A stretch of DNA of 64,000 bases, taken from assembly GCF_003334355.1 (NCBI RefSeq), contig NZ_QOWP01000012.1. The stretch is one strand, 5' to 3'. Positions 8,855 to 35,807 of the stretch are shown here, piece after piece (positions within the stretch are counted from its first letter, which is position 1; every line of letters starts with the position of its first letter). The translations under genes and the position numbers were made by a program. Below the pieces are notes generated by a model, which worked only from the letters and a program-made list of their open reading frames with translations, did no database searches and was not told where the DNA came from. The DNA comes from Escherichia coli. GTDB lineage: Bacteria > Pseudomonadota > Gammaproteobacteria > Enterobacterales > Enterobacteriaceae.

Positions 8855-8888
8855 GCCGCCGTCACCCCGACAGTATCGGGGTGACGGA
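8855..8888. terminator. Hairpin just downstream of ybiT (perfect 10-bp stem GTCACCCCGA/TCGGGGTGAC)
   Basis: Inverted repeat read directly in the sequence, immediately 3' of the ybiT stop on the minus strand. Confidence 0.5.
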
Positions 8889-15440: not shown

Positions 15441-15471
15441 CAAAAATCCGCCCCGAGAGGCGGATTTTTTA
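15441..15471. terminator. Bidirectional rho-independent terminator between opgE and ompX
   Basis: AAAAATCCGCCCCGAGAGGCGGATTTTTTA hairpin flanked by A/T runs. Confidence 0.7.
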
Positions 15472-15485
15472 TATCACCAAAGTGA

Positions 15486-16001
15486 TTAGAAGCGGTAACC
15501 AACACCGGCAATCCAGGTGCCTACGTCAACGCTACGAATACGGCTCTGCTCGTAAGAGAAGTCCAGAGCAACGTTTTCCATCGGGTTGAACTGCAGACCC
15601 GCACCGTAGGAGAAACCGTAGTCGCTGGTGTCGTGTTTGTAGGTCGGGTATTCAGTGGTCTGGAATTTACCATAACCCACACCCACTACACCGTAGATGC
15701 TTGCCCAGTCGTTAATGCGGTAAGCCGGACCAGCAGTGATGCCGTAGTACTGGTTTTTGTTGTAGTCACCAGAGCTTGCAGTACGGCTTTTCTCGGTGTA
15801 AGTGAAAGAACCGATCACACCCAGCGGGCTGTTGTCTTCTTCATAGCGGTATTTCAGGTTGAAACCGCCCATTTTGTTCATTTGGCCCTGAGCGTCGCTC
15901 TGTGCGTAACCGCCAGTTACAGTAGAAGTCGCAGCTACGGAAGTACCTGCGGTGAAAGCCAGAACTGCGGCCAGTGCTGAAAGACATGCAATTTTTTTCA
16001 T
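15486..16001 (-). CDS. ompX: Outer membrane protein X
   Basis: Translation from MKKIACLSALAAVLAFTAGTSVA gives 171 aa with C-terminal aromatic residue (GYRF). Confidence 0.9.
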   Translation of the reverse strand: MKKIACLSALAAVLAFTAGTSVAATSTVTGGYAQSDAQGQMNKMGGFNLKYRYEEDNSPLGVIGSFTYTEKSRTASSGDYNKNQYYGITAGPAYRINDWASIYGVVGVGYGKFQTTEYPTYKHDTSDYGFSYGAGLQFNPMENVALDFSYEQSRIRSVDVGTWIAGVGYRF

Positions 16002-16353
16002 AACCACCTCAAATGTGATTCAAATAAGTCCTAAGTTTTAAATATATCAAAAATTAATGGGAAACTCTTCGCGATTTGTGATGTCTAACGGGCCATTTCA
16101 TGTAACAGAACGTTTCCATACACCGCTATCCATCTAAATTTAAATCACTTTTTCAGAGAACTGCGTAAGTATTACGCATGTTTTCCCTGTCATTCATCCA
16201 GATTATTCCTAATCACCAGACTAATGATTCCATCAATCCTGGCGCATTTTAGTCAAAACGGGGGAAAATTTTTTCAACAAATGCTCAACCAGCATTGGGT
16301 ATATCCAGTACACTCCACGCTTTACTTAAGTCTAGATATTTGTGGGAGAAAGG

Positions 16354-17241
16354 ATGCCTGGTTCATTACGTAAAATGCCGGTCTGGTTACCAATAGTCAT
16401 ATTGCTCGTTGCCATGGCGTCTATTCAGGGTGGAGCCTCGTTAGCTAAGTCACTTTTTCCTCTGGTGGGCGCACCGGGTGTCACTGCGCTGCGTCTGGCA
16501 TTAGGAACGCTGATCCTCATCGCGTTCTTTAAGCCATGGCGACTGCGCTTTGCCAAAGAGCAACGGTTACCGCTGTTGTTTTACGGCGTTTCGCTGGGTG
16601 GGATGAATTATCTTTTTTATCTTTCTATTCAGACAGTACCGCTGGGTATTGCGGTGGCGCTGGAGTTCACCGGACCACTGGCGGTGGCGCTGTTCTCTTC
16701 TCGTCGCCCGGTAGATTTCGTCTGGGTTGTGCTGGCGGTTCTTGGTCTGTGGTTCCTGCTACCGCTGGGGCAAGACGTTTCCCATGTCGATTTAACCGGC
16801 TGTGCGCTGGCACTGGGGGCCGGGGCTTGTTGGGCTATTTACATTTTAAGTGGGCAACGCGCAGGAGCGGAACATGGCCCTGCGACGGTGGCAATTGGTT
16901 CGTTGATTGCAGCGTTAATTTTCGTGCCAATTGGAGCGCTTCAGGCTGGTGAAGCACTCTGGCACTGGTCGGTTATTCCATTGGGTCTGGCTGTCGCTAT
17001 TCTCTCGACCGCTCTGCCTTATTCGCTGGAAATGATTGCCCTCACCCGTTTGCCAACACGGACATTTGGTACGCTGATGAGCATGGAACCGGCGCTGGCT
17101 GCCGTTTCCGGGATGATTTTCCTCGGAGAAACACTGACACCCATACAGCTACTGGCGCTCGGCGCTATCATCGCCGCTTCAATGGGGTCTACGCTGACAG
17201 TACGCAAAGAGAGCAAAATAAAAGAATTAGACATTAATTAA
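16354..17241 (+). CDS. rhtA: Threonine/homoserine exporter (DMT superfamily)
   Basis: Translation from MPGSLRKMPVWL gives 295 aa, 10-TM-type hydrophobic protein. Confidence 0.85.
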   Translation: MPGSLRKMPVWLPIVILLVAMASIQGGASLAKSLFPLVGAPGVTALRLALGTLILIAFFKPWRLRFAKEQRLPLLFYGVSLGGMNYLFYLSIQTVPLGIAVALEFTGPLAVALFSSRRPVDFVWVVLAVLGLWFLLPLGQDVSHVDLTGCALALGAGACWAIYILSGQRAGAEHGPATVAIGSLIAALIFVPIGALQAGEALWHWSVIPLGLAVAILSTALPYSLEMIALTRLPTRTFGTLMSMEPALAAVSGMIFLGETLTPIQLLALGAIIAASMGSTLTVRKESKIKELDIN

Positions 17242-17249
17242 ATTTACAT

Positions 17250-17280
17250 TTCTGCATGGTTATGCATAACCATGCAGAAT
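17250..17280. terminator. Perfect palindrome immediately after rhtA (CTGCATGGTTATGCATAACCATGCAG)
   Basis: Long perfect inverted repeat read directly in the sequence, about 10 nt after the rhtA stop and upstream of the dps promoter region. Confidence 0.5.
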
Positions 17281-17395
17281 TTCTCGCTACTTTTCCTCTA
17301 CACCGTCTTTATATATCGAATTATGCAAAAGCATATTTATTCCGAAAATTCCTGGCGAGCAGATAAATAAGAATTGTTCTTATCAATATATCTAA

Positions 17396-18043
<648 letters not shown>

Positions 18044-18064
18044 ATCCATCGCTGATGGTGCAGA

Positions 18065-18110
18065 ACTTTAGTACCCGATAAAAGCGGCTTCCTGACAGGA
18101 GGCCGTTTTG
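18065..18110 (+). terminator. Putative dps terminator hairpin
   Basis: Imperfect GC stem (GGCTTCCTG...CAGGAGGCC) followed by TTTTGTTTT. Confidence 0.45.
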
Positions 18111-18258
18111 TTTTGCAGCCCACCTCAACGCACTTATTTAGTGCATCCATCTGCTATCTCCAGCTGATTAAGTAAATTTTTTGTATCCACATCATCACAC
18201 AATCGTTACATAAAGATTGTTTTTTCATCAGGTTTTACGCTAAATAATCACTGTGTTG

Positions 18259-18392
18259 AGTGCACAATTTTAGCGCACCAGATTGGTGCCCCAGAATGGT
18301 GCATCTTCAGGGTATTGCCCTATAAATCGTGCATCACGTTTTTGCCGCATCTCGAAAAATCAAGGAGTTGCAAAACTGGCACGATTTTTTCA
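18259..18392 (+). promoter_or_regulatory. glnH control region: NtrC-type palindromes and sigma-54 type promoter
   Basis: GCACCAGATTGGTGC palindrome near 18275 to 18289 and TGGCAC-N5-TTTCA near 18377 to 18392, upstream of glnH. Confidence 0.55.
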
Positions 18393-18431
18393 TATATGTG
18401 AATGTCACGCAGGGGATCGTCCCGTGGATAG

Positions 18432-19193
<762 letters not shown>

Positions 19194-35579: not shown

Positions 35580-35807
35580 AACTACTCCGAACCGCCCCGA
35601 CCGTTACCGGTGTAGTTTTCAGGGAGATACTGAAAAGGAAAATGACAAAAACCACAATGTCATGAGGGAGCGGAGTGTAGCAGTTTTTGTGACGCAGCGC
35701 ATAAATTATCCCTGTGACTGGCGTTGCTAAAATTCTTAGCCATACTGGACAACTCCCCTATGGAGTCATAATCTTAATCAATCATTTGATTAAGAATGGA
35801 CTGTGCG

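Follow-up and report, generated by a model that had tools for sequence, protein, structure and literature searches.

An intrinsic terminator is recognized by a G+C-rich stem followed by a U-rich tract of 7–8 nt. A different kind of transcript end was described by Dar and Sorek (2018, NAR; PMC6061677), who found Rho-dependent transcripts with a stable stem-loop, reduced U content, and an excess of C over G downstream. In their account, Rho terminates diffusely further on, PNPase or RNase II trims the RNA back to the hairpin, and such stem-loops can turn intrinsic by gaining U residues. REP elements are extragenic palindromes downstream of genes that are able to stabilize the upstream mRNA. Finally, Antipov et al. 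(2017; PMC5553809) placed a 30-bp inverted repeat at the center of an in vitro Dps footprint, 216–281 bp upstream of Pdps, and speculated that it affects promoter topology. The element described here is that same DNA, and we consider it very likely that it encodes the 3′-terminal stem-loop of the rhtA mRNA. The two underlying observations are already known: the rhtA 3′ end stands in a published table (PMC10687069), and the inverted repeat appears in the Dps literature (PMC5553809). What we add is cross-genus covariation, a strand bias, an argument for a Rho-type protective hairpin as the conserved mode, and the placement of the E. coli allele near the intrinsic-terminator boundary.

The window, by which we mean the whole stretch of 64,000 nt that was analyzed, carries ompX on the minus strand followed by rhtA (16354–17241), dps (17540–18043), and glnH, all on the plus strand. 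The gene identities were confirmed by comparison with MG1655, from which the window differs by a single base (17496) over the 4 kb compared across ompX–rhtA–dps–glnH. The palindrome occupies 17250–17279 on the plus strand. It is 30 bp long and perfect, with 15-nt arms that abut without a spacer (TTCTGCATGGTTATG and CATAACCATGCAGAA), and it begins 9 nt past the rhtA stop codon (TAA, 17239–17241, plus strand). The sequence-only reading had reported a perfect palindrome directly after rhtA, and both the perfection and the position hold. Its 12-bp arm was an undercount, since the arm is 13 nt in the 26-mer CTGCATGGTTATGCATAACCATGCAG (17252–17277) and 15 nt in full. No second copy of that 26-mer was found in the 64-kb window with up to three mismatches allowed, where 0 would be expected by chance. 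Nowhere else in the 64 kb is there a perfect, spacerless palindrome with arms of at least 7 nt, and no hairpin in the window has a longer perfect stem. Other long perfect hairpins lie at 8859–8887 (CCGTCACCCCGACAGTATCGGGGTGACGG, a 12-bp stem) and at 35772–35795 (TCTTAATCAATCATTTGATTAAGA, a 10-bp AT-rich stem). The palindrome is thus genuine, but it is ordinary. Its spacerless perfection in Escherichia requires only that the 4-nt loop (TGCA) be self-complementary, which has a chance of 1 in 16. The loops of close relatives read TGCAT or GCAT.

As RNA, 17250–17279 folds on either strand at −18.7 kcal/mol, with 13 bp in the stem and the 4 nt UGCA in the loop. On the plus strand, this corresponds to z = −5.6 to −6.6 relative to dinucleotide shuffles, and 0 of 200 shuffles folded as well. 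The stem is followed by a weak U-rich tail, UUUCUCGCU (17280–17288, plus strand), within which the mapped rhtA mRNA 3′ terminus lies. Immediately after the stem, the sequence is UUUCUCGCUACUUUUCC, with no canonical U-run. The statement in the sequence-only reading that no T-run follows the palindrome was therefore roughly right, because the tail TTTCTCGCTACTTTTCC has 4 T in its first 8 nt. This is one below the criterion of the tool that we used to scan for promoters and terminators, which explains why the scan did not call the palindrome as a terminator. An Rfam scan of 16000–18500 (E ≤ 1) returned no match overlapping 17245–17290. It returned only sub-threshold matches on the dps intrinsic terminator: ctRNA_p42d at 18081–18116 (26.9 bits vs. 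a gathering score of 50) and, more weakly, STnc70 at 18034–18115, both of which are probably terminator look-alikes.

We also computed a terminator d-score of the d'Aubenton-Carafa type, combining the formula reportedly given by d'Aubenton-Carafa and colleagues in 1990 with modern energy parameters. The window allele scored −4.5. Two positive controls, the dps terminator and the terminator between opgE and ompX, scored +22.5 and +9.1, respectively. By this measure, the E. coli element is a borderline intrinsic terminator, and it does not show the combination of a G+C-rich stem and a 7–8-nt U-rich tract.

Where rhtA transcripts end has been mapped in MG1655. In Supplementary Data 3 of the TRS study (Nat Commun 2023; PMC10687069), the minus strand has an rhtA 3′ terminus classed as "Primary," with a peak at 849163–849170 and a dominant position at 849165. 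With the conversion window = 866451 − MG1655, the dominant terminus falls at window 17286, 7 nt past the stem, and the peak at 17281–17288. We checked the register with the dps terminus of the same table (848334), which converts to window 18117, inside GUUUUGUUUUGCA. The resulting rhtA 3′ UTR is about 45 nt (46 nt in the table), and this hairpin is printed there as well, at −18.7 kcal/mol. The terminus has a signal of 0.911 and rank 700, and its adjusted p values in three libraries are 0, 0.185, and 0.0028, so that one library is not significant (PMC10687069). The gene is weakly expressed, and its mapped 3′ end rests on this one study. We did not find an rhtA entry in the portions we searched of the supplementary 3′-end tables of Adams 2021, TERMITe, and SMRT-Cappable-seq, and the RefSeq annotation gives neither a stem-loop nor an end point for the rhtA 3′ region. 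The suggestion in the sequence-only reading that the palindrome may terminate rhtA is supported by this end point and by the conservation of the hairpin described below; RNA folding and published 3′-end mapping, the checks it named, gave the −18.7 kcal/mol fold and the terminus at 17286.

According to the legend of the supplementary table, the folded sequence runs from 40 nt before the terminus to 10 nt after it. The dps and rhtA coordinates instead imply a stretch from 50 nt before to 1 nt after, and for the U-tract window they imply 10 before to 20 after (PMC10687069). We placed the rhtA end from the tabulated coordinates and not from the sequence windows of the legend. The same table gives a primary opgE 3′ end at 850979. 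The hairpin between the convergent genes opgE (plus strand) and ompX (minus strand), at 15442–15469 (AAAAATCCGCCCCGAGAGGCGGATTTTT), is symmetric with A5 and T5 flanks and looks like a bidirectional intrinsic terminator.

To compare relatives, we assembled 80 Enterobacteriaceae loci from a Dps search of genome contigs and located the rhtA stop codon in each. A hairpin of −12 kcal/mol or lower starting no more than 25 nt past the stop codon is present in 60 of the 67 distinct sequences and in nearly every genus. The loops of these orthologous hairpins range from 3 to 13 nt, and the stems differ widely in sequence: TTTTGCATGG...CCATGCAAAA in E. albertii, CTGCATGATG...CATCATGCAG in one Citrobacter group, TTCAGCATG...CATGCTGAA in Kosakonia and Phytobacter, TATTTACCGTGG...CCACGGTAAATA in Buttiauxella, CATTTAATGCGG...CCGCATTAAATG in Cedecea, GTTCTGCACGAGGC...GCCTCGTGCAGAAC in Raoultella, and CGGCCCG...CGGGCCG in Klebsiella pneumoniae. 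In an alignment of 44 sequences, 95.1% of the cells of a 12-pair helix are paired, compared with 78% after column shuffles and 30–44% with slid partners. Ten of the 12 pairs have changed on both sides, and there are 95 compensatory cells where 27 would be expected. RNAalifold predicted the same helix independently.

The mismatches that the helix tolerates depend on the strand. Read as the sense strand, the alignment contains 20 G·U or U·G cells and 3 A·C or C·A cells. Shared ancestry inflates both the covariation and the G·U counts, so fewer independent events lie behind them; we estimate about 8–10 independent wobble events vs. 3. Fold stability points in the same direction: of the 60 hairpins, 41 are more stable on the sense strand, 11 on the antisense, and 8 are equally stable on both. 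Compensatory pairs and strand-specific G·U are what mark a conserved structured RNA, and the orthologues show both. Variable arm spacing, replaced stems, and sense-only wobbles are predicted by an RNA hairpin in the rhtA transcript and not by a dimeric operator or a cruciform. The comparative data therefore favor RNA as the selected function, and the case for an rhtA 3′ end is much stronger than that for a protein-binding site in the dps region.

What has not been kept is the U-tract. Among 68 distinct orthologous loci, d-scores are below 0 in 67, with a median of −33 for all 68; the hairpin is thus conserved while the U-tract, missing in almost all genera, is not. The sequence after the hairpin has a different bias. 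In the 60 nt that follow, C exceeds G at 65 of 69 loci (means of 14.3 C and 6.6 G), and in the window the sense strand of 17280–17339 holds 14 C and 5 G, which makes this tract a candidate Rho-loading (rut-like) region. A hairpin that persists where the U-tract does not, with 60 nt behind it that are rich in C and poor in G, makes a Rho-dependent type of mechanism the most likely one to be conserved, namely termination by Rho followed by trimming to a protective hairpin.

The locus resembles the class of Dar and Sorek (PMC6061677) in its stable stem-loop just past the coding region, in its steady-state 3′ end a few nucleotides further on, in the excess of C over G downstream, and in the lack of a U-rich tract or an upstream A-tract in most orthologues. 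This likeness consists of sequence features and a mapped 3′ end, from which we infer Rho dependence and trimming. A difference from that class is the partial U-tract of the E. coli allele (UUUCUCG, d = −4.5), and that allele lies near the intrinsic boundary. With an intrinsic terminator the element shares a hairpin ahead of a pyrimidine-rich tail, and its mapped 3′ end, 7 nt past the stem and 9 nt past the last G-C pair, is at the usual release distance. Unlike one, it has a stem base rich in A-U pairs, U at only 4 of the first 8 tail residues, no call in the terminator scan, and a d-score far from the +22.5 of the neighboring dps terminator. REP elements, too, are extragenic palindromes behind a gene whose mRNA they can stabilize; unlike them, the element here is single-copy and has neither the REP consensus nor clustered inverted copies.

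The following sequence of events would account for these features. Transcription that starts at the rhtA promoter continues past the stop codon and through the inverted repeat, whose RNA folds into the 13-bp hairpin, a structure backed by covariation. Rho most likely loads downstream and terminates diffusely in the rhtA–dps spacer, after which PNPase or RNase II would trim the RNA back to the hairpin, which would protect the rhtA mRNA from there on. This would leave steady-state transcripts ending 7 nt past the hairpin, as in the published mapping. The E. coli tail (UUUCUCG, or AUUUUCUCG in phylogroup B2) is U-rich enough that some polymerases probably release directly there. By either route, the element would keep rhtA transcription apart from the dps promoter, which is heavily regulated and lies about 220 bp further on. 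Our literature search returned no paper pairing rhtA with bicyclomycin, and no bicyclomycin or exonuclease-mutant data for this locus.

Within E. coli, the element is nearly universal. Of 5426 complete genomes, 5421 contain the 38-mer around the palindrome, each at a single locus that always lies between rhtA and dps; the "two places" per genome returned by the search are the two strands of one palindrome. The search for further copies that the sequence-only reading had named as a check thus returned none in these genomes. About 1174 of the 5421 genomes have one mismatch in the 38-mer. In the three of these that we read, S88 and the ST131 strain MB1341 (both B2) and M25631H, the change is A to T at 17279. 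The stem thereby loses its outermost A-U pair, the tail grows to AUUUUCUCG, and the d-score rises from −4.5 to the +6.8 of the phylogroup B2 allele. In M25631H, a second change, C to T at 17254, gives a U·G pair on the sense strand. Judged from their sequences, the E. coli alleles look like a transition from a Rho-type end to an intrinsic terminator. In E. coli HS30-1 (locus L085, 1769–2466), an IS1X2 element sits in the rhtA–dps spacer at the equivalent of window ~17352. It lies between the hairpin, which is intact and ends about 75 nt before it, and the dps promoter.

The palindrome could instead act as DNA. The dps core promoter, comprising the −10 hexamer TATACT and the approximate start, lies at 17488–17501 on the plus strand, as judged from the sequence and from PMC5553809. 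The palindrome falls within the published distal Dps footprint (PMC5553809), so the suggestion in the sequence-only reading of a protein-binding site in the distal dps promoter does have a counterpart, albeit in vitro only. Its center is about 236 bp upstream of the dps start. This start we take to be at about 17501. In such a reading, the palindrome would be a structure-specific contact site, possibly a cruciform, for Dps or another architectural protein. It would determine the local topology and play a part in dps autoregulation. Dps does prefer branched DNA, the distal F1-R1 fragment carries its footprints (Melekhov et al. 2015; PMC4433220), and the perfect, spacerless Escherichia repeat is the form most prone to cruciform extrusion. 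However, the binding was seen in vitro, with Dps in 5–10-fold molar excess, and was weaker for the distal fragment than for the promoter-proximal one (PMC4433220). The comparative data also weigh against this explanation. Outside Escherichia, the arms are 3–13 nt apart and G·T mismatches are tolerated only as G·U in the sense-strand RNA (20 vs. 3), and the stem has been replaced completely in Buttiauxella, Cedecea, Klebsiella, and Raoultella while its position beside the rhtA stop codon was kept. The perfection that favors extrusion needs merely the self-complementary TGCA loop. A DNA cruciform would also preserve an inverted repeat, but it leaves the strand bias of G·U unexplained. Overall, we regard a purely DNA-level role as unlikely. 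The two Dps papers (PMC4433220 and PMC5553809) treat this same DNA as a structural element of the dps promoter; the word rhtA does not occur in either, and an RNA hairpin or rhtA 3′ end was not considered there. Both roles might be combined, with the RNA ending and protecting the rhtA mRNA and, in Escherichia, a DNA cruciform under supercoiling nucleating the binding of Dps (or HU). If so, dps promoter topology would be coupled to transcription arriving from rhtA, but we consider this combination quite improbable.

The palindrome could also be an operator for a sequence-specific dimeric transcription factor, regulating dps from a distance or rhtA itself. In favor of this, Escherichia, Citrobacter, Enterobacter, Lelliottia, and Silvania have kept the sequence of the half-site TTCTGCATGG/CCATGCAGAA. 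Yet the spacing of the half-sites among those five genera varies from 0 to at least 8 nt, which a dimeric DNA-binding protein could not tolerate, and among all orthologues the gap between the arms runs from 0 to 13 nt, where such an operator should have a fixed one. In other genera, the arms change by compensatory substitution. The position also speaks against an operator, as the site follows rhtA and precedes the dps start by some 236 bp, and there is no regulon of similar sites because the palindrome occurs once per genome. Our literature search found no such operator and no match to the palindrome sequence or to an rhtA–dps palindrome. The spacing or half-site is wrong for LexA, Zur, and NsrR-like operators. 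We therefore hold an operator to be very improbable. A chance palindrome, or a functionless remnant of a mobile or repeated element of the REP or MITE kind, is more doubtful still. Inverted repeats do occur in intergenic AT-rich DNA, and IS1 has inserted into this very spacer in one strain. Against this, 0 matches are expected by chance, the fold is 5.6–6.6 standard deviations better than shuffles, and the structure covaries across genera. The palindrome is absent from phage records and viral contigs, and six "plasmid" matches are chromosome-like records of 0.7–4.9 Mb. Being single-copy in 5421 of 5426 genomes and absent from the phage and viral sets, it is not a repeated or mobile element, and REP and MITE identities fail on copy number (one locus per genome). 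A chance or mobile origin without function is effectively refuted.

Reading the palindrome as the 3′-terminal stem-loop of rhtA has small importance beyond annotation, where it supplies the stem-loop and end point of rhtA for the rhtA–dps spacer. It provides a clean example of a 3′ hairpin kept by covariation across the Enterobacteriaceae while the U-tract comes and goes, a pattern that fits the idea of terminators drifting between Rho-dependent and intrinsic modes. It also cautions against treating the "30-bp inverted repeat" purely as a dps promoter element, because the repeat belongs first to the rhtA transcript.

Several features of the spacer and the dps promoter can be added. The one base that differs from MG1655, 17496 (G here, A in MG1655), falls in the discriminator of a sigma-S/sigma-70 promoter, past the dps −10 hexamer (TATACT, 17488–17493) but before the transcription start. 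Overlapping the −10 hexamer is an inverted repeat, ATAGC-N6-GCTAT, within 17470–17493 (GAACACATAGCCGGTGCTATACTT). It resembles the MntR box of dps that was reportedly identified by Yamamoto and colleagues in 2011. In a Leclercia orthologue, TATAGCCGGTGCTATA is kept. Finally, no hairpin follows rhtA in Pseudocitrobacter (L013 and L015), Trabulsiella (L045, L059, and L068), or Klebsiella indica (L007). In Pseudocitrobacter and Trabulsiella, the rhtA–dps spacer is only 114–129 nt, compared with about 300 nt elsewhere, so rhtA transcripts may enter the dps promoter region in these two genera.
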